Shown: positions 13,119-41,321 of the stretch, piece by piece
How positions within the stretch are numbered: position 1 is the first letter of the stretch
Layout of the letters: the number at the start of each line of letters is the position of its first letter
Virus record (IMG/VR): IMGVR_UViG_3300020472_000058
Location: 1 to 41,624 of that record
DNA length: 41,624 nucleotides
Strand: one strand, 5' to 3'
Origin: a virus
Lineage: Duplodnaviria > Caudoviricetes
Made by a program: the position numbers and the translations under genes
The notes under the pieces: generated by a model
The model's database searches: none
The model's input: the letters and a program-made list of their open reading frames with translations, nothing else
Told to the model about the DNA's origin: nothing

Positions 13119-16079
13119 TTAGACTCTTCTAGACCTTTGATGTAAGAATCCTTCCCATTCTGCGGATTGAAATGAACAAGGAAGATACTCATTATTTTCT
13201 ATAACTATATTGCAGTTTGCTGCCTTAGACATTACACCTCCTTTAAAGGTTCCTGAGAGTAGCTTATATTGTCCAAAAGATGATGTATTGGTTATCATTC
13301 CACTAAATGTCTTTTCGTAGTTTTTACGAGGAGTTATAGAGGTTGTTCCGTTGTTACCATCACCAATCAGTATAGTCCCAGGATCTACATTAATCTTTAA
13401 GTTAAAGAATCCTGTCCTACTGTAGAGTAAGTTAATGTTTCTAATCTGTAGCTTTGCTGTTTGGGCTGGTTGTTCATTCTCTTTGTGGATGAACCTAGAG
13501 AACTCGTATTCAAAGTTAAATGGAATTCCTGCGTATACAGCAATTTTAGATGTGGCTAAACTTGTTCCATCAGCTAAGGTTCTTCCATTTGCTAAGTATT
13601 CATTAACTTCTGCTATTGTACTAAGCTTTCTCGCATTGTCTGTTACAAATACTATATTACTTGGAAGAAATACTAATGTAGTATTGGAATTACTTGCAGT
13701 TGCATTAGCTGAGAGTTCAAATGTAGTTGTATTTGTAATGGATGCTACAGTTGTTTCTGCAGGGATTCCTGTTCCTAATACTTTCATTCCTGCTAAAATT
13801 CCTGTGGTACTGTCCATAGTAACTGTGGCATCATTATTGGTAGTATCACATGTAGCATCTTTGTAGTAAGGCATGTCAGCAGTTACAGTTTGGTTGTGTG
13901 TAAGTTTAACTCTCCTATCCAAAAGTACTGCTGTCTCATCTTCCATAACTGCTTCTGCAGAATCTAAACTAAGATTTATATCTTCCAGATAAAGTCCATC
14001 TGCTCTCTTTACAAGAAGCTTCATGGTTGATCCTAAGAACGCACAGTTCAGAATATCTCCATCAAACTCCCAATGGCTCCAAGAGTTCTGGAGCTTCTCC
14101 TGACCTTGCCAGAAGTTCTTATATACATAAATCCTTTTCTTATCGTCATCACTCAGGACTGCTACCATTTGATCATTAGAACTAACAACCAGTTTAGTAA
14201 TATTACCTTTTATATATTGAGGTACATGTGCAGTAATGTCTGTTGCATCGTTGGCATCTGCAGTTCCCATGTCTACAAAGTACTCTCTTACTCCTGAGTA
14301 CTCACCACGTTCAAAAGGAAAGTAAACAAACTTACCAGAAGATACTGGTGCAGCTTGGGAGGTACTTTCAAACTGAGTTACAACATCTACAGAAACTGAG
14401 CTAGGAGTAAATCCTTCTCCTTCACTACTTAAACTGAATTGTTGAAAGTCTGAAAAGAGTAATAAGCTTTTGTTAAAGGCTGCAGCGTGTGTGAGGATTG
14501 AGACTTGGTTGTTGGATACAGAGATGTCAATGGGATTACCATCAAGAGCAGTCATCACAGAAATAGGAAAGAAATTATAGTAGTTTCCTGCTTCTGAAAA
14601 GATTATGTTCTCATCACTTAGGATTCCGAATCTATTCTGGTGGAAGGTAATATCATTAATCTTACCTCCTGTAAAGGATGGAAAGGAATTAGAGGTATCA
14701 TCTCCTGCTTTCCTAGAGGACCAACCAAACCTAGCTGGCGCACCATGAGCAGCAACCGTTTCTTTTACTGCTTCAAATAAAAAATACTTATTAGGAGTAG
14801 TTTGAGTGTCATATAGTCTTATTAATCTATGTGGCATTGTAGTAATATCAAACCCTGTCTTTATACCTCTTCCTAGAGTTTCTTTCCATACACCTACACC
14901 TTCATCATCTTCTTCATATTTCACAAAGAAATCATCTTGAGATCCTCCTGCGTTACCTACTACCTTTACTATGTAACCTACAGGAACATTCCTTCCTGGT
15001 AATCCTGAAAAAGAAGTTACTTCATCTTTTATTCCTACTAAAGCTGCTCCACCTTTGGAGTCTTGAACTTCTATTGAAAATGTAGCTTTACATTTTATTG
15101 ATATTACACTTCCTGAAGCATCATCCATAGAAATAGAGAAGTCAGAATCTGCAGAAGCTATTGCATCTAAACCAGCTACATAATCTCCTGTATCACCACC
15201 TGATGACACCCCATTTTCATTCCTATCTGCTATACATCTCCAACCTCCAAAACCTTCTGCAGGAGTTCCTGTAGTATCAAAATCATCCCAATGAGTATCT
15301 GTATTAGGATATGTAGTAGTATTTGTTTGTCCTTCTTTTAAATACTTAGCAATAATAGGAGTACCTATATGAGTCTGATTTAGTCCTACTTGTGAAGAAG
15401 GAGTTTGAAGTCCTATTTTGTAGGTTGTTCCTCCTTTTACTATCTTTATTACATACTTACTAGAATAATCTCCTGCCTTTACAAATATCAAACCTTCGTC
15501 TGTGTACGCACCAGTAATTTCTGTAGAGCCAGTAGAAGAAAGGTAGTTACTTGTACCTTCTCCTGAAACTACACCATTTGATCCTGCTTCAGTTACAGTT
15601 TTAGTTTTATTAATAAGGAAGGTGGTATCTGCTACAGTGGTGGCTACTATGTTATCTCTAACTCCTCCTGAAGTGGCTAAGGTATCAAGGTATAGTAAAT
15701 CAGAAGTTTCAAGATCATGATTAGATGAACCTGTTAAAGTAGCGTTTGCCACAGGCTCAGTTTTTACAGGAATAGAAGTACCTTCCTGATCATATATCTT
15801 TAAAGTTTTTGCAGTACCAGAAGCTGTTCCACTAGCTCTAGTAAGAACCATTGTATATTCTTCATTCCTATCTCTCCGAATAGTATGAACAAATGTATCA
15901 TCTACTAATGTATCTGTAATCTTTTTCTTATGCTCAGTTCCAGGTCTTTTCTCTAAACCTCTAGCAACTGTACTAAAACCATTTACCTGTCTCTCACATT
16001 GAGAAGGTAATCTAATCTCAGGAGGTTGCTGAGAAATTCCATTTATTAAATTAGGAATAGAAGAAGAAACTAAAGGCAT
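13119..16079 (-). CDS. Tail tubular protein B / nozzle (gp12-like)
   Basis: MPLVSSSIPNLINGISQQP...GLEKRPG, FHQNRFGIL and WSHWEF motifs. Confidence 0.93.
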   Translation of the reverse strand: MPLVSSSIPNLINGISQQPPEIRLPSQCERQVNGFSTVARGLEKRPGTEHKKKITDTLVDDTFVHTIRRDRNEEYTMVLTRASGTASGTAKTLKIYDQEGTSIPVKTEPVANATLTGSSNHDLETSDLLYLDTLATSGGVRDNIVATTVADTTFLINKTKTVTEAGSNGVVSGEGTSNYLSSTGSTEITGAYTDEGLIFVKAGDYSSKYVIKIVKGGTTYKIGLQTPSSQVGLNQTHIGTPIIAKYLKEGQTNTTTYPNTDTHWDDFDTTGTPAEGFGGWRCIADRNENGVSSGGDTGDYVAGLDAIASADSDFSISMDDASGSVISIKCKATFSIEVQDSKGGAALVGIKDEVTSFSGLPGRNVPVGYIVKVVGNAGGSQDDFFVKYEEDDEGVGVWKETLGRGIKTGFDITTMPHRLIRLYDTQTTPNKYFLFEAVKETVAAHGAPARFGWSSRKAGDDTSNSFPSFTGGKINDITFHQNRFGILSDENIIFSEAGNYYNFFPISVMTALDGNPIDISVSNNQVSILTHAAAFNKSLLLFSDFQQFSLSSEGEGFTPSSVSVDVVTQFESTSQAAPVSSGKFVYFPFERGEYSGVREYFVDMGTADANDATDITAHVPQYIKGNITKLVVSSNDQMVAVLSDDDKKRIYVYKNFWQGQEKLQNSWSHWEFDGDILNCAFLGSTMKLLVKRADGLYLEDINLSLDSAEAVMEDETAVLLDRRVKLTHNQTVTADMPYYKDATCDTTNNDATVTMDSTTGILAGMKVLGTGIPAETTVASITNTTTFELSANATASNSNTTLVFLPSNIVFVTDNARKLSTIAEVNEYLANGRTLADGTSLATSKIAVYAGIPFNFEYEFSRFIHKENEQPAQTAKLQIRNINLLYSRTGFFNLKINVDPGTILIGDGNNGTTSITPRKNYEKTFSGMITNTSSFGQYKLLSGTFKGGVMSKAANCNIVIENNEYLPCSFQSAEWEGFLHQRSRRV

Positions 16080-16714
16080 TATGAGTATAAGATTCTTTGA
16101 GATTTTATAAAGGAAGTAGCTCCTGCACCATTGATACTCCGATCTAATGCACGGAAAGTATCGTAATTATCAAATATATTGAAATCGGCTGACTGAGATT
16201 GTGATTCTCTTAACGCAACTAAGGCTGCTTGTTCATCTTTAAATTGTAGTTGTGTCATTTCTCCAGAGCCTAATATGTTTTCTTGGAATTTTCTTCCTGC
16301 TCTGAGGGTGATATATCGTCTAGCAACTTCAGGAAGTTCTTCAAACTCTAGGAGTACAATCATATCTACTTCAACATCTCCTGAAAATTCGTATGTATTC
16401 TTAGTTCTGTCATAGAGTTTCTGATTCCTCATAACAATATCTGTATTATAATCTCTTGTTAGAGTTACAGTATCTACATATAGACAGTTGGAAGGAACAT
16501 TAATATGATTCACTGAATTTCTACTTAGTGTGTATCTTATATCAGTATTAAATGCCCATCCTGCGGTTTGAACTTCTCTGGAAACTGTGTCAAGAGTAAG
16601 GGCAGCTATCTCAGCTTCCTGAAGACCAGAATTCATTGTGTTTACTGGTGCTTCTCCAATACCAATCAGCATTGAATTAACAGCATCTAGTTTGGATGTA
16701 AGTGATATAGCCAT
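16079..16714 (-). CDS. Tail tubular protein A / adaptor (gp11-like)
   Basis: LDAVNSMLIGIGEAPV...GWAFN...LPEVARRYI; true start MAISL at 16714 because the upstream part of the called ORF is the hairpin region. Confidence 0.92.
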   Translation of the reverse strand: MAISLTSKLDAVNSMLIGIGEAPVNTMNSGLQEAEIAALTLDTVSREVQTAGWAFNTDIRYTLSRNSVNHINVPSNCLYVDTVTLTRDYNTDIVMRNQKLYDRTKNTYEFSGDVEVDMIVLLEFEELPEVARRYITLRAGRKFQENILGSGEMTQLQFKDEQAALVALRESQSQSADFNIFDNYDTFRALDRSINGAGATSFIKSQRILYS

Positions 16715-16735
16715 TAGGGAATATTTGGAAGGATT

Positions 16736-16817
16736 AAAAAGGTGTAGAGGAGGATGGAGAACTACTTTTTCCCCCTCTACGAAAATGGGACACGGCAAGA
16801 GGATTAACCGCATCCCA
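16736..16817 (-). terminator. Tandem stem-loops after the capsid gene (T-phi-like terminator / candidate small RNA)
   Basis: Two 11-bp stems (16786-16796/16807-16817 and 16744-16754/16770-16780); all 4 DNA mismatches are G.U pairs on the minus-strand RNA; each stem is followed by a U-run. Confidence 0.8.
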
Positions 16818-16829
16818 CAAGAGGTATTA

Positions 16830-18017
16830 TTAGTTGTGCGATGCTGACAACGCTACTGCCATTGCTGGCCTTAGTACGTTGTGACCCATTGCATACTTAG
16901 CAACTAATAGAGTACCTTGACGTTGGATCTGATACTCAGACTCAACGGAAAGATCCATCAGTTTCACAGTTGCAACTGCATCTTTACTCATTACAATCGC
17001 ACGGACTTTATTAGCTTCCGCTTGAAGGTTTACTGAGGATGTACCGTCAAGTCCACCAACTGCACCTGTATTACTACCATCATTAACTACACCATTATAA
17101 GTAGCTGGAAGGTTATAATGAGCTTCTCTTCCAGATTCAGGAGAAGCTAGAGGTGCTGCGCCTGTAGTAAGGGCAGGGTTTGCTGTTGAGAACAGACTTC
17201 CTGTCCATGCAGAACCAGTATCAGAACCCATGTGAGGTGTTCTAACAAGTGGAATTCCTGCAATCGTAGGCATATCTAGATCCTTTACAGATCCTCCACC
17301 ACCAACATCACGATTGAACATCAAGAGTTGTGAAGCGGTTTCTTGGTTGGTTCCAGCTTTAAACATGTGGTAGTACAAGTCAGAGTTAATGACACATACT
17401 AGATCGTCTAAAGGCGCACCAGCAGCTTCTAAGATCCGCTTTGCTTCAATTACACCTTCCATAAAGTTTACTGCTTTTTTGGAATTAGCGTAATTGGTAT
17501 CTGAATATTGTACGTTTGCTGTGAAGTCTTCATCATCCCAACCAACATAGTCCTGAACCATTTTACTAGCTCGTTGCTTGTTTGTTGTTAAGGCAGCTTT
17601 TACCGCCATACGGAGGATGTTCTGATCTGCAGCTTTTGCAAGACCATAAGAAGCTTCGTTAGTGTAGACTGAGCGAATATCATAATGAGCCATTGCTTCA
17701 TCAATATTTGGAATAAATTGATGTGCAATTAAGAGGTCATCAATCGTTACTAATCGCTCTGTGTGCTTGGCTGCCACATTTGGAATGATTTCATTACCTG
17801 GAGTGTGATAAGCTGCAGCACGATTCTTACCTGTCATGATGAACTGTGCAGATTTTCCATTCTTAATTGAACGAACTCTACAATGATCCATCATAATGTT
17901 CTTGGTCTGAAATGCGGTCATTACTTCACCAGCATATAGCTTTAGGAATAGACTCCTAGCACTACCAGTAGCATTGACCTGACCAGAACGATGACCAGTA
18001 TAATTAGTTGCTGACAT
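16830..18017 (-). CDS. Major capsid protein (gp10-like)
   Basis: LFLKLYAGEVMTAF, RSIKNGKSAQF, ITIDDLL-like VTIDDLL and AKYAMGHNVLRP motifs. Confidence 0.96.
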   Translation of the reverse strand: MSATNYTGHRSGQVNATGSARSLFLKLYAGEVMTAFQTKNIMMDHCRVRSIKNGKSAQFIMTGKNRAAAYHTPGNEIIPNVAAKHTERLVTIDDLLIAHQFIPNIDEAMAHYDIRSVYTNEASYGLAKAADQNILRMAVKAALTTNKQRASKMVQDYVGWDDEDFTANVQYSDTNYANSKKAVNFMEGVIEAKRILEAAGAPLDDLVCVINSDLYYHMFKAGTNQETASQLLMFNRDVGGGGSVKDLDMPTIAGIPLVRTPHMGSDTGSAWTGSLFSTANPALTTGAAPLASPESGREAHYNLPATYNGVVNDGSNTGAVGGLDGTSSVNLQAEANKVRAIVMSKDAVATVKLMDLSVESEYQIQRQGTLLVAKYAMGHNVLRPAMAVALSASHN

Positions 18018-18158
18018 ATTTTCCTTTAATTGTCATTGAGAAATTATGCTATTTTACTAGCACGTTAATACGAACCCTCGTATCTCTCTACATACGACAA
18101 CTAAGGTTATCCTCCTCAGAGGGCAATAATTGTTCTTAATGTGGGTAAAATTCTTGGG

Positions 18159-18974
18159 TTACATTAGGTTAGAGGATTCTATTTTACTAGCTATCTCTTC
18201 CCTATAAACAGGGTCACTCTGGTATCTAGGATCTTTCATTGCTTCTGTCATTTGCGCTAATGACGAAAACGATCCTGAACTTGATTTACCAGTTGTTCCC
18301 TGTATAAGATTAGGCATACTTCCGTTTGCCAATTGGTATTGAGCGTTGAGAGACTTAATAGCAAATAAGCTATCATTCTTATTAGAACTCTCTAACGCTC
18401 TGTTGAATGAATCTATTTCATTTTCAGGTAGATTATCTCCTGCCCATTTCACTAGTTCTTGGTAGTTCTTTTCACCACCTACAGAATCATACGCAGTCTC
18501 TGTAAGCTTATCAGAAATAGCTTCTTGACCTTGTATCCATGAGTCAACCATCTCAGTAGACATACCTTTACTTTGAAGTTCTGTATATGACTCAGGAGAT
18601 AGACCTCCTTTCTCTGAATACTCTACTGCGTATTTATTATAATCTAACCCTGCATTTGCTAAGGTTTTTTGAGCTTCATTTATTTGGGATTGTTGTTCTT
18701 CGGAAATAATTGGAGTCTGCGGAGGTGGTGTAACCTCATCGTTGCTCGCTACAGACTCCGAATTGGATGACATCTTCCTTTCTAATTCCTTATATGCCTG
18801 TGCCATATCTTCTGGACTACTGAATTTTTCAGGTAACCAACTCGGATTTCCGTCTTCTCTTTCTACTGCATTTGCTTCTTCTGCAAGATTGACCATCTCT
18901 TTCTCATACTCAGGCGTACCTTCTACTGGAGGTGGAGCTTCTTCATGAGTACTAATTTGTGTAAGTTCTGACAT
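18159..18974 (-). CDS. Capsid assembly scaffolding protein (gp9-like)
   Basis: PSWLPEKFSSPEDMAQAYKELE, VGGEKNYQELVKWA and AMKDPRYQSDPVYR motifs. Confidence 0.93.
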   Translation of the reverse strand: MSELTQISTHEEAPPPVEGTPEYEKEMVNLAEEANAVEREDGNPSWLPEKFSSPEDMAQAYKELERKMSSNSESVASNDEVTPPPQTPIISEEQQSQINEAQKTLANAGLDYNKYAVEYSEKGGLSPESYTELQSKGMSTEMVDSWIQGQEAISDKLTETAYDSVGGEKNYQELVKWAGDNLPENEIDSFNRALESSNKNDSLFAIKSLNAQYQLANGSMPNLIQGTTGKSSSGSFSSLAQMTEAMKDPRYQSDPVYREEIASKIESSNLM

Positions 18975-18996
18975 ATATTTCTCCTCTTATATAAGA

Positions 18997-21279: not shown

Positions 21280-21753
21280 TTAATTTAAGGGGAAATAGAA
21301 CTGGTAACGAGTAACAACATTAGTCCATTCTTGGGTTTCCTTTGCTAACTCTGCAAAGTAATCTAAATTACTAATACAAAACATACCTACACATTTATTT
21401 TCTCTGGCAAATTTTGTAATAGTTTTATAAGCTTCAAAATATCTTTTTGAAACTGTGTCTTTATCTACATCTTTAGTACGAGTGGAAGAGTATAATACTA
21501 AAGTAGATCTTCCTGTAAATTCACAGGTCTGAAGTTGTGTAAGTACAAGATAATCCTCATCTCCTTCTATCCAAAGGTGCATAGTATTACTGAAAGGATT
21601 CATTAACCTTTCGTATACACCTTTATACAACTGTTCCCTCTCTTCATCTGTGAATTGATGTTCCTTACTTAAACTCTCAAAAGCCATTTCAAGATAAGGT
21701 CTATACTTCTTCCAATTCTCTTTGATCTTTCTTTGTGAAACAATCTTTAACAT
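21280..21753 (-). CDS. Hypothetical protein, possibly GNAT-fold
   Basis: 157 aa with AAGAGGA SD; pattern LWI...LVLTQL...LVLYS...ITKFARENKC resembles small phage acyltransferase-like proteins. Confidence 0.45.
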   Translation of the reverse strand: MLKIVSQRKIKENWKKYRPYLEMAFESLSKEHQFTDEEREQLYKGVYERLMNPFSNTMHLWIEGDEDYLVLTQLQTCEFTGRSTLVLYSSTRTKDVDKDTVSKRYFEAYKTITKFARENKCVGMFCISNLDYFAELAKETQEWTNVVTRYQFYFPLN

Positions 21754-21770
21754 TTATCCTCTTAAAAAGT

Positions 21771-25207: not shown

Positions 25208-25215
25208 ATATCCTC

Positions 25216-25740
25216 TTAGAGTTGTGGTGGATTGTTATAAGTTTCAGGATCAGTCAAATCGTATGCGTAATCCTCGTACATTTCTAAAGTTAAACTGTTA
25301 CCTATTATTTCATCGAAAGGAATTATATAAATCTTCGGGAATTTTACCATAAATAAGAAATTAAAATCACTTTTAGTATATGGAAATTTCCTAGATTTAC
25401 CTCTATATTTATCTCCGTTTTCTCGTTTTAAATATATACGATCTCCTTTTTCAGTTGTCTTAACTTGAATAGTAGACCATGATGTCCCTTTATTTATAGC
25501 AAAGTCACAGCTACTACATGAATTAGTAGGTTCAAATACATCGTAGTTCCATCTATGTAATATGTAACGTACAAGATCTTCCCCTGCTAACCCTATAGTT
25601 TGATTTACTTTCCCTTGTTTAATGGGTTTCTCCCCAATTATTTCCGATGGAGTATTCTCCTGAGAGTGGGATTCTGAGTCCAAATCTAGTCCCAGTAATG
25701 GTAATTGCCTCGACACAAATTCTACCGATTTGTTCTGCAT
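25216..25740 (-). CDS. PD-(D/E)XK endonuclease, likely a free-standing homing endonuclease
   Basis: G.AGE...CDFAI...IQVKT...YTKSDFNF pattern; TAAGGAG SD before ATG 25740; overlaps the last 122 nt of the polymerase gene. Confidence 0.7.
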   Translation of the reverse strand: MQNKSVEFVSRQLPLLGLDLDSESHSQENTPSEIIGEKPIKQGKVNQTIGLAGEDLVRYILHRWNYDVFEPTNSCSSCDFAINKGTSWSTIQVKTTEKGDRIYLKRENGDKYRGKSRKFPYTKSDFNFLFMVKFPKIYIIPFDEIIGNSLTLEMYEDYAYDLTDPETYNNPPQL

Positions 25741-27352
25741 AGTTCTCCTTAACTGTTAGTTGTACCTCATCGTGAACAAACGCTACCTGATTATAATCCT
25801 CTCCACGTTTGAACCCTTTTTTATTAAGTAGTGAATGAATTTCCACTACCCATTGTTTACAAATTATTGCTCCTGCTGATTGAAGGAGTGTGTTTAAAGC
25901 TGCATGCTGAGATCTAACAGGAACAAACCTACCATCTAATCCTTTAATGGCTCCTTGTTCTACTGCTTTATCTTGAACAGCTTTTCTTAGTGATTTTAAA
26001 GCTGGTAATTGAGAAAGAAATTTAGTCTTTAATAATTTCCCTTCCTTCCTACCCTTCCCAACGATCTCACCAATCTTTTGATCTCCCGCACCATACAGAA
26101 AACCATAAATGAATGTCTTGGCTTGATCTCTCGTAGCCAAACCAGCTGCTTCCTGATTAACAGTATGTATATCTTCCTCCAAAAGTTTCTTGCCATATTC
26201 GCCATTGTCATACCTAGCAAGATAATGCGATAGACAACGCAACTCAAGGCCAGAGACATCAACGCCCAATAGTTTCTGTCCTCTATTCGCAGTAAATAAA
26301 GAGCGACAATCTTTCCCATAGGGTGCATTTGTATTCGGAACTTGAGCGAGGTTTGGGTTTGAGTGAGAACACCTTGAAGTCGATGCTCCCATCGTATTGA
26401 CTCTCCCATGCAATCTCCCATTTTTTACGAGTTTTAGCCATGCTTGATCCCCTTCTGCAAGTTGACCAATGCGTTTATTTAACATAAGATATTCAGACAT
26501 TAACTTAGCTTCAGGATAGTCTAACTTTTTGAGAATAGTCTCATCAATTTTAGCTTCTCCTGTTGGTGTGAACTCTTGCGGTTTCCAGCCTCTGAGTTCC
26601 TTGAGTCTTTTTGCAATGTGTTGTCGTGAATTAGGATTGAACTCAATAATTTTAACTTTAGAATACAATTCATTACGTCTAAGTCCCTCGTTAATGAGCC
26701 ATGATCCAAAAACTTTTTTAAGTTTTGTTTCAAGTACATCCCTTTTACTTGCCAGTTCTGAATATAATTTAACAGCTTTTGTTTCATCGAAATTAATTCC
26801 ATAATACTCCTGCTTGTTACAAATGTTGGCAATCTGATGCTCTAATTTAACGGAATTCTTACTAGGCAATCTTCCCCTAAAATTTTTCCATAAAATATCC
26901 GTTAGTTCGACATCTTGAATACAATAGTCGATCATCTCCTGAGATAGTTCTTCAAAAGCATTTTCGGAAACTCCATATTCCCCTTTAAGGTTTTCAAGCC
27001 TATATCCCCAAGCTTTTAAAGAGTGGGAACCAAAGTATTTAGGTTCAAGTCTCCTAACTTTGATATCCTCTGATCTTAGATCCGCATGTATTAATCTACT
27101 AAGAATTAACGTATCGGTAACTTGGGATATTGGTATTTTAAAACCATATAATCTCCTTAAAACTTCCAAGTCAAATCCTAGAATATTATGTCCTATGATC
27201 TGACCAGTTTTAAGTACCTTTAAAGAGTCCTCAATTTCCTCTTGTTTTGTGGCTACTGTGATTGAATCATCAATCTTATACACAAGACAATGTACTTTTG
27301 AGACTGTATCTAAAAGTCCATCAGTTTCTATGTCTAGTATAATATTTTTCAT
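25619..27352 (-). CDS. Family A DNA polymerase (gp5-like)
   Basis: Exonuclease DIETDG and HNILGFD; motif A DVSGLELR; motif B AKTFIYGFLYG; motif C VHDE. Confidence 0.96.
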   Translation of the reverse strand: MKNIILDIETDGLLDTVSKVHCLVYKIDDSITVATKQEEIEDSLKVLKTGQIIGHNILGFDLEVLRRLYGFKIPISQVTDTLILSRLIHADLRSEDIKVRRLEPKYFGSHSLKAWGYRLENLKGEYGVSENAFEELSQEMIDYCIQDVELTDILWKNFRGRLPSKNSVKLEHQIANICNKQEYYGINFDETKAVKLYSELASKRDVLETKLKKVFGSWLINEGLRRNELYSKVKIIEFNPNSRQHIAKRLKELRGWKPQEFTPTGEAKIDETILKKLDYPEAKLMSEYLMLNKRIGQLAEGDQAWLKLVKNGRLHGRVNTMGASTSRCSHSNPNLAQVPNTNAPYGKDCRSLFTANRGQKLLGVDVSGLELRCLSHYLARYDNGEYGKKLLEEDIHTVNQEAAGLATRDQAKTFIYGFLYGAGDQKIGEIVGKGRKEGKLLKTKFLSQLPALKSLRKAVQDKAVEQGAIKGLDGRFVPVRSQHAALNTLLQSAGAIICKQWVVEIHSLLNKKGFKRGEDYNQVAFVHDEVQLTVKENYAEQIGRICVEAITITGTRFGLRIPLSGEYSIGNNWGETH

Positions 27353-28980
27353 TAGAAGTCCTCCTTATTCTCCTTTTCAAATCCATAAGATTTAGCTTCA
27401 TCAGGTGAAGCAGTAACTACCATTCTTCCTGTCTCCTTAGAATAATGTAAGGTATCTGCAACTCCAGTTTCTCCTGTCCATCGGTTTTTCAGAACTCTGA
27501 TAGTTGTGAGGTCTGGATTCTCCTCGTCTTGTTGGTTTCTTTCACAACCAATTACTATGTCAGAGAGTTGAGCTATCCCATGAGAACCTCTTAACTGGTT
27601 CAAAGTAGTTCTAACTCCTTCTTCATGACCTTTATCTCCTGTAGGTCTGCGTAAGTGAGATACAAGAATTAAAGAACATTGAACTTCTTCTACCAAAGAA
27701 CGTAGTTTAGTCATCACAAAGTCTAACATTCTCCTTTCATCTCCTCCTTCTAAACCAGAAAGAATTATAGTAAGATGATCCAAGATAATATGAGTGCATC
27801 CTACACCTTTTACAAGGTATCTTATCTTGTTAAAGAGATGGTTGATCTCCATGCTTCCCCAATGATCGTAGAGGAATAGGTTTCCTGTGCCTAGTACATT
27901 ATCAAATCCACTCTTTAATTCTTCTGGAGTATGATCCACACTTTGTAGATGAATAGGCTTGTTAAGGTATAATCCTATGAAACCAAGCGCAGTCCTCTTA
28001 GTATTTTCCTCAAGTGCAAGATATCCCACTTTCTGATCCTGAAGCATCAGTGAGTATGCTATTTCTCTACAGACTTGACTCTTACCTACTCCTGAACCTG
28101 CGGTGATTGTAATGATCTCGCCTTTACGAATACCCTGAGTCATGTTATTCAATCCATTGAAAGGATAAGGCATTGAATCTGTTTCTACTGTGGTACTAAC
28201 GAGATCCCATAGGTCTTTCCCATCAATGATACCATCAGGTCTATAGCTTTTTGCATTCCAGATCTGATTGATAATTTCTGCACCTCTTCCTGCTTGTATC
28301 ATCTCATTAGGATCTTTAAGCGGAAGTGTAGCAATTTTTACTTTTCCTGGACTAAACAACTGAACGCAATCATCCACAGCTTTTTGACCTGCATCATCCT
28401 GATCGAACATCAGTATAACGGACTCAAAATTTTCTAGGTATTCTAAGTCGTTCTGAATAGCCTTCCTTGCTCCTGCTGCTCCAGTTGGGATACTAACCAC
28501 AGGCCATTTGTTTCCTTGCGCCTGAGAGACAGACATGGCATCTATTTCACCCTCGCAAATGGTGATCATCTTGCCTTTTTCCCACAAGTGTTTTCCGTAA
28601 AGTCCTGCTTCTTTAGTATCTCCTATAAAAAGGAAATCTTTGTTAGGAAACCTGAGTTTCTGAGCTACTACATGCCCATCTTTTTTATAATTAGCAATCT
28701 GAACTTTTTTACCTTTTACTTCACCAATTTGGTAAGACCATTTACTTACAGTAGCTTTAGTTAAAGCACGTTTTTTGAGTGCTTCTACTTCTCCTTTAAT
28801 AAAATCCATACTATATTTCTCCTCTTGTTTAATGTTCTCCTTAGTGTCTCCTTGTTGTCTATAACCGCAACCTGGAGTAAAACACCAACCATGCCCATCA
28901 TCATAGACAGCTAAGTTATCTACAGAACCGCATCTAGGACATGGAGCATGGGAGATGCAAGTAGATTCTTGTTCTCCCAT
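27352..28980 (-). CDS. Primase/helicase (gp4-like)
   Basis: Zn ribbon CPRC...CFTPGC; TOPRIM EGEID and FDQD; Walker A AGSGVGKS; LRGS...QLSD. Confidence 0.96.
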   Translation of the reverse strand: MGEQESTCISHAPCPRCGSVDNLAVYDDGHGWCFTPGCGYRQQGDTKENIKQEEKYSMDFIKGEVEALKKRALTKATVSKWSYQIGEVKGKKVQIANYKKDGHVVAQKLRFPNKDFLFIGDTKEAGLYGKHLWEKGKMITICEGEIDAMSVSQAQGNKWPVVSIPTGAAGARKAIQNDLEYLENFESVILMFDQDDAGQKAVDDCVQLFSPGKVKIATLPLKDPNEMIQAGRGAEIINQIWNAKSYRPDGIIDGKDLWDLVSTTVETDSMPYPFNGLNNMTQGIRKGEIITITAGSGVGKSQVCREIAYSLMLQDQKVGYLALEENTKRTALGFIGLYLNKPIHLQSVDHTPEELKSGFDNVLGTGNLFLYDHWGSMEINHLFNKIRYLVKGVGCTHIILDHLTIILSGLEGGDERRMLDFVMTKLRSLVEEVQCSLILVSHLRRPTGDKGHEEGVRTTLNQLRGSHGIAQLSDIVIGCERNQQDEENPDLTTIRVLKNRWTGETGVADTLHYSKETGRMVVTASPDEAKSYGFEKENKEDF

Positions 28981-29068
28981 ATTTCCTCTTTAAATTGTGA
29001 ACCAGTAACTAACAGTTAGGACAATGAGATACTTCCCTCTGCGTCACTACATTTACATAGTTACTGGT

Positions 29069-29984: not shown

Positions 29985-30005
29985 ATTGTTCTCCTATATT
30001 ATATA

Positions 30006-32685: not shown

Positions 32686-32837
32686 TAAACCTCCTCTTTA
32701 GTGATTTTTATTGTGTTACCTACCATTATATTGTAAGCAACGATGATAAGAATAGTAATGACTCCAGACAAGAATCCGAAACCAAATATGCTAAAAAATA
32801 CCAAGATGTCAGGTAATATTAAAAACCATCTACCCAT
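32685..32837 (-). CDS. 50-aa membrane protein (MGRWFLILPDILVFFSIFGFGFLSGVITILIIVAYNIMVGNTIKITKEEV), missing from the ORF track
   Basis: AGGAG SD; TAATG coupling to the RNAP start; long hydrophobic stretch. Confidence 0.6.
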   Translation of the reverse strand: MGRWFLILPDILVFFSIFGFGFLSGVITILIIVAYNIMVGNTIKITKEEV

Positions 32838-33964: not shown

Positions 33965-34447
33965 TTAATCCTCCTTTTGAAACCATTTAGGTTGTTGGGT
34001 GTATTTCCACTTACACATATATGCCTTGTCTATATTATAGTAGTTACGATATGCTTGCACAGTATCGTCAGACTTGTAATGGTCTGGCATACATTGTGGT
34101 GGACTTTTAAAACCTTTGATACCTATGTTTTTAGGCGCTTCAGACAGAGCATGTAAGAGCCTTGATGTAGCATGAACTTTTGTATATCTTTTGGTATACT
34201 CAGCACATAGATACTTAAATAGCCGAAAAGTATAATGGTAATGATCGTACGACTCTCTAACCCATACTGCACTTGGATGGTTCTTATGGGTAGCCTTGTA
34301 CAATTCTTCATTCTCCTCATCACCATCTAAGATGCGATGTGCTGTACTCAGTAGTTGAGCATACTCAAGTATCATTTTGACAACATGCTTGTCGCAATGA
34401 GCTTCAGCACAAGTTTTTGTGTTAGTGTCTAAATAAAAAATGTTCAT
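33965..34447 (-). CDS. Pyrimidine-dimer DNA glycosylase / DenV-like family protein
   Basis: MNIFYLD...HCDKHVVKMILEYAQLLSTAH...THKNHPSAVW...EYT.RY...AYRNYY; GGAG SD before ATG 34447. Confidence 0.8.
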   Translation of the reverse strand: MNIFYLDTNTKTCAEAHCDKHVVKMILEYAQLLSTAHRILDGDEENEELYKATHKNHPSAVWVRESYDHYHYTFRLFKYLCAEYTKRYTKVHATSRLLHALSEAPKNIGIKGFKSPPQCMPDHYKSDDTVQAYRNYYNIDKAYMCKWKYTQQPKWFQKED

Positions 34448-34467
34448 TTTGTTCTCCAATTTAAGTT

Positions 34468-34553
34468 TGGTGAGGAAGGTAGGATTTGCACCTACTATGT
34501 CATTCGACATCTGATTTACAGTCAGATTGCTTATCTAGATTGCATACTTCCCC
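34468..34553 (-). tRNA. tRNA-Tyr (GUA) with encoded CCA and atypical D and T loops
   Basis: Acceptor GGGGAAG/CTTCCTC-A-CCA; anticodon arm TCTGA-CTGTAAA-TCAGA; long variable arm TGTC-GAAT-GACA; T arm GTAGG-TGCAAAT-CCTAC. Confidence 0.88.
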
Positions 34554-36475: not shown

Positions 36476-36495
36476 ATTTTCCTCTTATTTAAGAT

Positions 36496-36666: not shown

Positions 36667-36702
36667 TTAGTTCTCCGTTTTTGGGTTATTAGTTATATTT
36701 AA

Positions 36703-36960: not shown

Positions 36961-37027
36961 TTTGTTCTCCATTTTAGGTTTGAGTTTGGGAAGCTTTTAC
37001 ACTTCCCGATTAGTTAGAATTATAGGT

Positions 37028-37252: not shown

Positions 37253-37291
37253 AATGTTCTCCGTTTGGGTTTGAATTAGTTGATGTCACTC

Positions 37292-40184: not shown

Positions 40185-41321
40185 TTAGGATACTATTTGA
40201 AGATCTTTTTTTCGTCTTTTTCTATTTTTTGAGTACAAATCATCATTTTCAAGGAATGTTCCTTTATTATCTGTAGCAGATTTCACATTTCCTTTATTAA
40301 ATAGGATAGCTTCAGTATAATCACTTTCTCCATGAGGAACACTCTGTTGAAGAACACCATCATATCCTAAACTTTGGAAAAATTCGGTAAGTTCTAATCC
40401 ACTATCTAAAGAATGTAAATATCTTTCAACTTCCATAGGAGTTTTAAGAAAAACAGCTTCAGTTTTTATTTTTGAAATATCTGTACTATGATTAGGATCG
40501 GTAGGATCAAGAGCTTCAAGTCCCATTCGTAATCTTGTTAGACCTTCAGAAACAATTTGAGAATCTTCTTCATTCATAGCAAATGAATCCATTCCCACTT
40601 CTCCTTCTGGAGAAACAAGTCTCAAGGGATTATACATTCGTAAATAAAGCTTATGAACATTTGAATCTTTTGTAAATTCTCCATCCTGTCCTTTCATGTA
40701 TTTAGGAAACTCACTTTCTATAGTAGAAGTGTATACACCTTTAAATTCAGATCTACTTGCAGTTTTAGATGGATCTAAAGTCCCTTTTATTTTATATGGA
40801 GTTCCATGTCCAAATGCAACTGGTCTACCTTTTTTATCTACAATTAAACCTTGCTTACCTTCTTCATTTTTTCCCCACAAATCTAAATTAAGTCTCTGTA
40901 GAATTGGATCTTTTATGACTACTTTTCCTGTGTTCGTAGAGAAAGCTTGAATAGGAACATCATGCCATCTTTTTGTTTTCTTATTAAATGTAGCTCTTTT
41001 AGGATCTGTATGGTAATCTCTTATTGCTTTTTTTTCGTGTGGTCTAGTATCCCTTATAAAATCTCCTTCTTCATTAGTAATAACTTGTTCTCCTGCTTTA
41101 GGAGGATTTATTACGGATACACCTATTCTTCCTAAAGGAGTAGCTTTACCTAGACTTTTTACTGCTTTTGCAGGAAGATTTTTTACAAATTCAGGTAAAT
41201 TTTGACCACTAACTACTGTTTCTTTACGAGGATCTACTAATGCATCATTAGCTAATTCTGGATGATTTTTCCAAAAAAGATCTTCTTCTGTTGTTGGAAT
41301 TTTTAAATCTTGTCTGCTCAT
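40185..41321 (-). CDS. ADP-ribosyltransferase-like protein (ART-PolyVal-like C-terminal domain)
   Basis: GRPVAFGHGT...GVYTS...LYLRMYNP...GYDGV...EAILFNKGNVKSATDNKGTF; ATGA-coupled to terS. Confidence 0.68.
   Translation of the reverse strand: MSRQDLKIPTTEEDLFWKNHPELANDALVDPRKETVVSGQNLPEFVKNLPAKAVKSLGKATPLGRIGVSVINPPKAGEQVITNEEGDFIRDTRPHEKKAIRDYHTDPKRATFNKKTKRWHDVPIQAFSTNTGKVVIKDPILQRLNLDLWGKNEEGKQGLIVDKKGRPVAFGHGTPYKIKGTLDPSKTASRSEFKGVYTSTIESEFPKYMKGQDGEFTKDSNVHKLYLRMYNPLRLVSPEGEVGMDSFAMNEEDSQIVSEGLTRLRMGLEALDPTDPNHSTDISKIKTEAVFLKTPMEVERYLHSLDSGLELTEFFQSLGYDGVLQQSVPHGESDYTEAILFNKGNVKSATDNKGTFLENDDLYSKNRKRRKKDLQIVS

Follow-up and report, generated by a model that had tools for sequence, protein, structure and literature searches.

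A double hairpin downstream of the capsid gene of a T7-like phage, with loops complementary to ribosome-binding sites of genes upstream of the capsid

The 3′ untranslated region of the major capsid gene in a T7-like phage folds into a genuine RNA structure on the strand of the capsid mRNA, and the two C/U-rich loops of this element are complementary to ribosome-binding sites (RBSs) of the phage’s own genes. By analogy with bacterial RNAs that carry C-rich loops, this region probably masks the RBSs of genes ahead of the capsid and represses their translation. The phage is known from a 41.6-kb virus record, analyzed here over its whole length (41,624 nucleotides, hereafter ‘the window’), with a T7-like gene set in which every gene is on the minus strand: RNA polymerase, SSB, primase/helicase, DNA polymerase, exonuclease, ribonucleotide reductase (RNR), portal, scaffold, capsid, tail and terminase. 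The closest annotated capsids have less than 40% identity to that of the window. In a marine metatranscriptome, contigs from RNA libraries match the window at 99%. A host search found no gp11 relatives in species genomes, and the one host clue from the tRNA, a single 21-nt match, was uninformative.

Two further features of the window are recorded for completeness. A 378-aa ORF between the terminase genes (40185-41321) carries an ART-PolyVal ADP-ribosyltransferase domain (E 4e-10). The capsid 5′ leader (18018-18161, minus) shows a small hairpin, then GATAAC, then a branched long stem that ends about 10 nt short of the start codon; the leader is similar in clades A and B (defined below) and has no match in Rfam. 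This leader structure may control the translation of a capsid gene that lacks a Shine-Dalgarno (SD) sequence, or may contain the late promoter.

The post-capsid element

The spacer between gp10 and gp11 measures 116 nt from the capsid stop (16830) to the gp11 start (16714), and it holds two hairpins on the mRNA strand. In order of transcription, the features are as follows.

16830..18017, minus: major capsid gene gp10 (PHROG 267), with an AAGGAA or SD-less RBS
16819..16829, minus: unpaired linker, rich in A/U and C/U, that follows the double stop and contains a third CCUCUU
16785..16818, minus: hairpin 1, a 12-bp covarying stem with four G.U pairs and a 10-nt loop, UAAUCCUCUU, at 16806-16797
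16744..16780, minus: hairpin 2, 11 bp with one G.U pair and the loop AAAAGUAGUUCUCCA at 16769-16755
16715..16743, minus: C/U-rich, then A/U-rich tail without a conserved U-run, serving as the SD-less gp11 leader
16079..16714, minus: tail tubular protein gp11 (PHROG 446), its true start at 16714 taken from homologue starts and lacking an SD

Loop 1 has its core, UCCUCUU, at 16803-16797 with a YUNR motif just before it, and loop 2 has the core GUUCUCC at 16762-16756. A first-pass annotation of this DNA had described two 11-bp stems assigned to the minus strand by four G.U pairs; the strand and stem 2 are as described, while stem 1 is one pair longer and the G.U pairs number five. The folding z-score is -5.9 for the minus strand (0/200 shuffles) and -1.4 for the plus strand, and hairpin 2 has a folding energy of -18.8 kcal/mol. 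Loop 1 is predicted to be unpaired with a probability of at least 0.79 and loop 2 is open apart from two positions. Conserved stems presenting unpaired C/U-rich loops are the feature that typifies the RNAIII, RsaE and 6C RNAs.

To follow the element across phages, loci were collected by homology to the capsid and gp11, blind to the spacer, and 119 had both genes. Both loop motifs are found in 44 of these (31 distinct). The proposal that the loops are conserved in relatives holds for all 36 of the 36 gp11 relatives at 64% identity or above. In the remaining 75 loci the loop pair is absent, and most have one stem followed by a U-run. Pattern scans added members to the group that carries the element (clade A), but they require the loops and are therefore unable to test loop invariance. 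True matches in these scans lie in the capsid-gp11 spacer; matches outside that context form no double hairpin and were treated as chance.

Among 40 distinct cores, 9 of the 11 pairs of hairpin 1 change on both sides, a count reached by none of 500 shuffles and compared with 1-2 in slid controls. The alignment of the same cores has 118 G.U and 0 A.C in 480 cells, which fixes the strand as minus. Together with the plus-strand z-score, this count also rules out a CsrB/RsmZ-type protein sponge presenting GGA loops on the plus strand. In hairpin 2, pairs 8 and 10 of the upper stem covary above an invariant 7-bp base (GUAGAGG/CCUCUAC). The loop cores, UCCUCUU and AGUUCUCCAU, are invariant in clade A. 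A YUNR motif, which is short and common by chance, is present in loop 1 of 37/40 cores with its N position variable, and none was seen in loop 2. The third CCUCUU noticed by the annotation after the capsid stop (16824-16819) is there in the window, but varies in relatives and often reads CCUUUU.

The element occupies the position of the class I terminator T-phi after gene 10 of T7, where outgroup phages have a plain stem and U-run. It differs from T-phi in its two stems, its large invariant loops and the lack of a conserved U-run after hairpin 2: at most three T occur in the 8 nt directly after this hairpin in 28/40 cores, short of what a terminator would show. Between 4 and 6 T follow hairpin 1, where weak termination could occur. 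An intrinsic-terminator scan restricted to loops of 3-8 did not flag the element. One contig, among those assembled from 8 RNA runs, bridges the element (16694-16929).

Covariance models of Rfam 15 identified only the tRNA in the whole window, with a best E of 8.9 near the element, and no family reached the gathering threshold on four relative loci including clade B. When 90 sources were scanned with a covariance model of the element itself, 8 gave a hit, each time the post-capsid copy only, and the next best match had an E of 0.11; no second or divergent copy appeared among those sources, clade B not being included. Judged on these searches, the element belongs to no catalogued family and is best classed as a variant of the C-rich-loop RNAs that pair with RBSs, one whose comparative support is unusually strong.

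Ribosome-binding sites that match the loops

Identifying the 7-mers complementary to the two loop cores (AAGAGGA for loop 1 and GGAGAAC for loop 2) allowed us to list the predicted targets in the window.

18982..18988, minus: scaffold RBS AAGAGGA, predicted loop-1 target
21757..21763, minus: RBS of the 157-aa gene 21280-21753 (the ‘21753 gene’), predicted loop-1 target
25211..25217, minus: exonuclease RBS, predicted loop-1 target
25742..25748, minus: RBS of ORF 25216-25740 (weak PD-(D/E)XK match), predicted loop-2 target
28820..28826, minus: RBS of an internal in-frame primase/helicase start, predicted loop-1 target
28984..28990, minus: primase/helicase RBS, predicted loop-1 target
29988..29994, minus: SSB RBS, predicted loop-2 target
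32692..32698, minus: RNA polymerase RBS, predicted loop-1 target
33965..33973, minus: DNA methyltransferase RBS, predicted target, a 9-nt complement of UUAAUCCUC
34451..34457, minus: RBS of a pyrimidine-dimer-glycosylase-like gene (start 34447), predicted loop-2 target
36480..36486, minus: GP88-like gene RBS, predicted loop-1 target
36670..36676, minus: early ORF RBS, predicted loop-2 target
36964..36970, minus: early ORF RBS (start 36960), predicted loop-2 target
37256..37262, minus: early ORF RBS, predicted loop-2 target

All RBS matches named by the first-pass annotation are present to within 0-2 nt; the 9-nt methyltransferase match is among them, but one of its bases would pair with a base of the stem. 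On the minus strand of the window AAGAGGA occurs 16 times, 6 of them at starts (7 counting the internal primase start), and GGAGAAC 14 times, 6 of them at starts; the others are intracoding.

Several of these sites have features of their own. The internal in-frame ATG of the primase/helicase gene is preceded by a AAGAGGAGAA RBS (28826-28809, minus), an arrangement also seen in two other genomes (G003, G005) and comparable to gene 4A/4B of T7. A tRNA-Tyr(GUA) at 34468-34553 lies immediately upstream of a GGAGAAC RBS and is also present in G003, G004 and G007. The 21753 gene belongs to no known family; its nearest named clusters are GNAT acetyltransferases (scores 0.90-0.93), which serve as a lead only.

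We compared 7 element-bearing with 7 element-lacking records (G011 is 70% and G009 87% complete), with genes and starts called by a simple script. A site was scored when the 7-mer fell between -18 and -2 relative to a start codon no more than 25 codons from the first one. The commonest start-codon 7-mers in the element-bearing genomes are AAGAGGA (36) and GGAGAAC (29), against 9 and 5 in the controls. Either 7-mer precedes 62/180 ORFs upstream of the capsid and 0/126 from the capsid onward, which bears out the claim that the capsid and the genes downstream of it lack both words; in the element-lacking genomes the counts are 10/246 and 4/171. Within clade A, AAGAGGA accounts for 36/149 and GGAGAAC for 27/149 genes upstream of the capsid, with 0/95 from the capsid onward. 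A shortage of SDs in late genes is not the explanation, since the split persists among RBSs with a GGAG or GAGG core (62/112 upstream, 0/26 from the capsid onward); the loops are thus not equally complementary to RBSs on the two sides of the capsid start, one of the checks that the annotation had set.

The 62 matching genes represent 33 families, and by family count AAGAGGA and GGAGAAC rank 1 and 2 of 828 SD-like 7-mers. Internal ATGs are preceded by each 7-mer in only 2 of 1140 cases. The GGAG core is followed by AAC in 29/85 RBSs of element-bearing genomes and 5/117 of element-lacking ones, and this AAC falls outside the pairing with 16S rRNA. In this sense the complementarity between the loops and the RBSs of a particular set of genes exceeds chance. 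Outside these genomes, AAGAGGA is itself an SD of moderate frequency, at rank 4 by family in 9 control records. Late coding regions contain 23 AAGAGGA (35.6 expected) and 12 GGAGAAC (10.4 expected), the latter without avoidance, and middle coding regions have GGAGAAC in excess (20 versus 8.2 expected).

The choice of genes does not follow the early/middle versus late divide that the annotation had proposed. The scaffold and 21753 genes, both in the late region, are the most constant loop-1 targets, which puts the boundary at the start codon of the capsid gene. Across all loci, matching sites occur in 18/31 distinct RBSs of scaffold, 10/11 of the 21753 gene and 6/7 of SSB, compared with 0/27 of capsid and 0/24 of portal; as for the early/middle genes said to be targeted, the RBSs of DNA polymerase (0/5) and RNR (1/12) are rarely exact matches. 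At the 21753 gene, just 2 nt separate GAGG from the start codon in 4 of the 5 genomes listed, which is short for an SD and suggests that the word is kept for another partner.

The constancy of the scaffold and 21753 sites is also what would be expected of control in cis only, as in icaR, where the loops would fold back on RBSs of the same transcript and set head-protein stoichiometry, leaving the early matches as a by-product of a shared RBS style. Middle and late transcripts of T7 extend to the terminator after gene 10, a further point in favor of this reading. A more distant clade (L024-L037, capsid 33-35%) points the same way: after the capsid stop it has CUCCUCUU, ahead of a plain terminator (L025:11009-11097), and the scaffold RBS reads AAGAGGA in the 4 loci listed, perhaps an independent, scaffold-directed version of the arrangement. 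Pairing with the scaffold RBS is not a general rule of T7-like phages, as it is absent in most distant loci. We nevertheless regard control in cis only as unlikely. Among genes up to and including RNA polymerase, a site is present in 32/65 for clade A and 11/66 for clade B, in many unrelated families, and the loop-2 target GGAGAAC is found in 0/31 scaffold RBSs.

Within clade A, loop flanks and RBS flanks give no clear signal of covariation. In one lineage an A-to-U change in loop 1 fits the scaffold RBS, but the usual loop persists in other lineages whose RBS is similar. Most targets also do not explain the invariant AU after GUUCUCC or the invariant stem base.

A sister clade and a recombinant genome

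A natural contrast comes from clade B, the sister of clade A, represented by 17 distinct spacers from 26 loci collected by gp11 homology (for example L439:9908-9984). In 17/17 of these spacers the post-capsid RNA is a long stem with the terminal loop CCUUCCU and an internal tract, UCUCUUCC, and in 11/17 a U-run comes after the stem. This RNA has an AGGAGG/CCUCCU stem and UCUCCAU in common with hairpin 2, and a basal stem in common with clade C; on these grounds the clade B element is probably in part homologous to that of clade A.

The RBSs differ along with the loops. The clade B motifs were chosen after the spacer and 6-mer counts had been seen. The 149 upstream ORFs of clade A carry AGGAAGG 0 times and GGAAGAG once, whereas 165 upstream ORFs of clade B carry AGGAAGG 34 times, GGAAGAG 7 times, AAGAGGA 5 times and GGAGAAC once. 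AGGAAGG is the commonest start 7-mer of clade B, in 8/8 records (several of them partial), ranks 2 of 828 by family, and occurs at 2/91 ORFs downstream of the capsid. GGAAGAG, the word for the second loop, is weakly used (7/165, rank 26). Orthologous genes show the same exchange: scaffold has AAGAGGA in 6/6 cases in clade A and AGGAAGG in 7/7 in clade B, exonuclease has a motif of its own clade in 6/6 and 6/6, and RNA polymerase has AAGAGGA in 3/5 (one start is mis-called) and AGGAAGG in 4/5. SSB has no matching word in clade B.

The 21753 gene has itself been exchanged between the clades, with the junction at its RBS. The copy in G018 is 91% identical to that of the window yet carries AGGAAGG, so that each clade has its own site. 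The RNA contigs likewise depart from the window at 21756 and continue as B-type upstream sequence. Clades that exchange genes should share a host, and the difference between them is therefore unlikely to stem from host 16S tails that differ.

A further genome, G004 (L258, L259), has clade-A late genes and the clade-A element joined to a B-type early module that is 83-93% identical to the clade B group, and A-type matches number only 1 of 25 ORFs in the cross-clade comparison and 1 of 27 in the comparison of element-bearing records. The DNA polymerase tree puts G004 in clade B and the gp11 tree puts it in clade A, with A and B as sisters; it is either a recombinant or a chimeric contig.

On this evidence loops and RBSs have changed jointly between the sister clades, the covariation that the annotation had proposed to look for, although A versus B is one phylogenetic contrast. 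Conservation and the cross-clade swap together exclude the chance matching that the annotation had warned of. Its core idea, that the loops complement the phage’s own RBSs, comes through each of the computable checks it had set out, as far as sequence can judge; the interpretation as a whole is partly supported.

Clade D has a small hairpin with the loop AACCUCUA ahead of a plain terminator (L469:9919-9997). As a candidate for a third swap of loop and RBS it was rejected as unsupported, with matching RBSs in 0/45.

There are other possible explanations for these patterns. The loops may act as a general anti-SD sponge in which host mRNAs are the main targets, serving host shut-off, with the phage sites secondary. 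They contain CCUC/CUCC, and G004 retains the element with almost no targets of its own. Duplex energies, calculated without regard to accessibility as the best of the two loops against a canonical 16S tail, bear on this point: in control phages the loops pair with generic SDs about as well as the 16S tail does (means within 1.0 kcal/mol), while in six element genomes the mean loop-RBS duplex is stronger than that with the tail by 1.8-2.8 kcal/mol. A shuffled-loop null for these energies was too weak, being beaten in 4/7 element-lacking genomes as well. The loops differ from canonical CCUCCU, and the phage sites follow them at positions outside the SD and swap between clades with mutual gene exchange, which makes a host sponge very unlikely as the main function.

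Pairing may also be real and have another effect, with RBS-bearing RNAs tuning termination or read-through into the tail genes, or with pairing that stabilizes or activates the targets. More distant relatives have a plain stem and U-run terminator at the element’s position, a U-run follows the clade B stem in 11/17 spacers, and strand invasion could open the invariant base of stem 2, whose 5′ arm AGAGGR can pair with loop 1. Another effect of this kind is quite unlikely in our view. Clade A lacks the U-run after hairpin 2, the energy of that hairpin outcompetes the 6-bp alternative, and RNAs whose C-rich loops cover SDs inhibit translation in the cases that the cited reports describe (PMC3868564, PMC4152353).

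We consider it highly improbable that the element is an ordinary terminator or a barrier to 3′ exonucleases with a protein-binding loop, next to RBS words that arose separately through a strong SD style or as a RegB-like nuclease site. This account would need three independent coincidences, for two loops in clade A and one in clade B, with top-ranked RBS words, and loops of 10-17 nt are unlike the short terminator loops of outgroups. Its merits are the T7 gene-10 terminator position and the excess of GGAGAAC inside middle coding regions. In addition, GGAGAACAAAA fits the consensus GGAGRAYARAA given for RegB sites (PMC3014915). The ORFs of the window that were scanned include no match to a RegB- or Hfq-like family; for RegB-like nucleases this covered 44 ORFs against PHROGs and 22 against Pfam, where many ORFs had no match.

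Proposed mechanism and relation to known systems

In the mechanism that we favor, repression by the capsid 3′ UTR, each loop would form 7-8 bp with a matching RBS in the cell and block initiation. The active species could be the entire capsid mRNA or a 3′ fragment processed from it. It would act in trans on early genes, as argued by the 32/65 clade-A genes with a site up to RNA polymerase; on middle genes and scaffold its action would be in cis or in trans. Starts with AAGGAA, or A/U-rich starts without an SD, would let the capsid and tail genes escape. In T7, no late RNA is more abundant than the capsid message, and the proposed timing, in which repression sets in once capsid mRNA is abundant, rests on this T7 biology. 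Such repression would be expected to move ribosomes to virion proteins late in infection and to cap the scaffold-to-capsid ratio.

Repression as the outcome is suggested by analogy to several bacterial RNAs. RNAIII and RsaE of Staphylococcus aureus contact target RBSs with C-rich hairpin loops and inhibit translation (PMC4152353). As in that account, the element has C-rich loops directed at RBSs, two loops and several predicted targets, and RNAIII is also an mRNA. Unlike these RNAs as described there, it lies in the 3′ UTR of a phage capsid gene and measures about 75 nt, uses two private RBS words in place of the generic UCCC, is predicted to target the phage’s own genes, and has no sequence or Rfam match. 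The 6C sRNA of Mycobacterium tuberculosis likewise has twin hairpins with C-rich loops, which are reported to bind many mRNAs without a chaperone (PMC6486639), but it is described as a stand-alone chromosomal sRNA with C-runs, and the element has no Rfam hit. In the icaR mRNA of S. aureus, an anti-SD motif in the 3′ UTR pairs with the SD of the same gene and blocks initiation (PMC3868564). The element shares the 3′ UTR location and complementarity to SDs and departs from the icaR case as reported in that its own gene’s RBS avoids the match (capsid 0/27) while other genes carry it.

Among phage regulators, the endoribonuclease RegB of T4 cuts early SDs and so frees the translation apparatus for later genes (PMC3014915). 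The predicted outcome here is the same, an inactivation of SD-marked early messages, but RegB in that description is a protein made early that cuts, and here an RNA made late would mask. Phage sRNAs are few and, in the sources cited, mostly lack shown targets (PMC10914365, PMC4933390, PMC5737381, bioRxiv 2024.10.31.621285). PreS of lambda is Hfq-dependent and acts mainly on host genes (10.1101/2024.10.31.621285), and sRNA1/2 of PAK_P3, which have no shown targets, arise by processing of 3′ UTRs and are abundant late in infection (PMC4933390, PMC10914365). They resemble the element in being phage-encoded RNAs, and neither is described in the cited text as matching a phage-wide RBS code. A search of largely open-access literature found no description of such an element, and the strings tried in the searchable supplements of PMC10690425 were not found.

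These observations may be brought together as a private and rewritable address code, a wider reading for which our confidence is evenly balanced. Clade-specific 7-mers in RBSs would be the addresses and complementary loops on the capsid mRNA the keys, and both would have been rewritten jointly as the sister clades diverged. The predominant late message would then shut down early, middle and scaffold translation without a protein regulator, and genes that cross between clades would take the resident address. The code possibly extends to matching host messages.

In T7-like phages, late redirection of ribosomes and a scaffold level below that of capsid are usually ascribed to promoter strength. 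The element would offer a mechanism at the RNA level for both, testable with two short RNAs and reporters, and the loop-RBS pairs of clades A and B amount to a natural compensatory-mutation experiment. If the proposal is true, phage regulators would gain a new class, with RNA in the part that RegB plays in T4, and the element would provide orthogonal pairs of RBS and repressor for synthetic biology.
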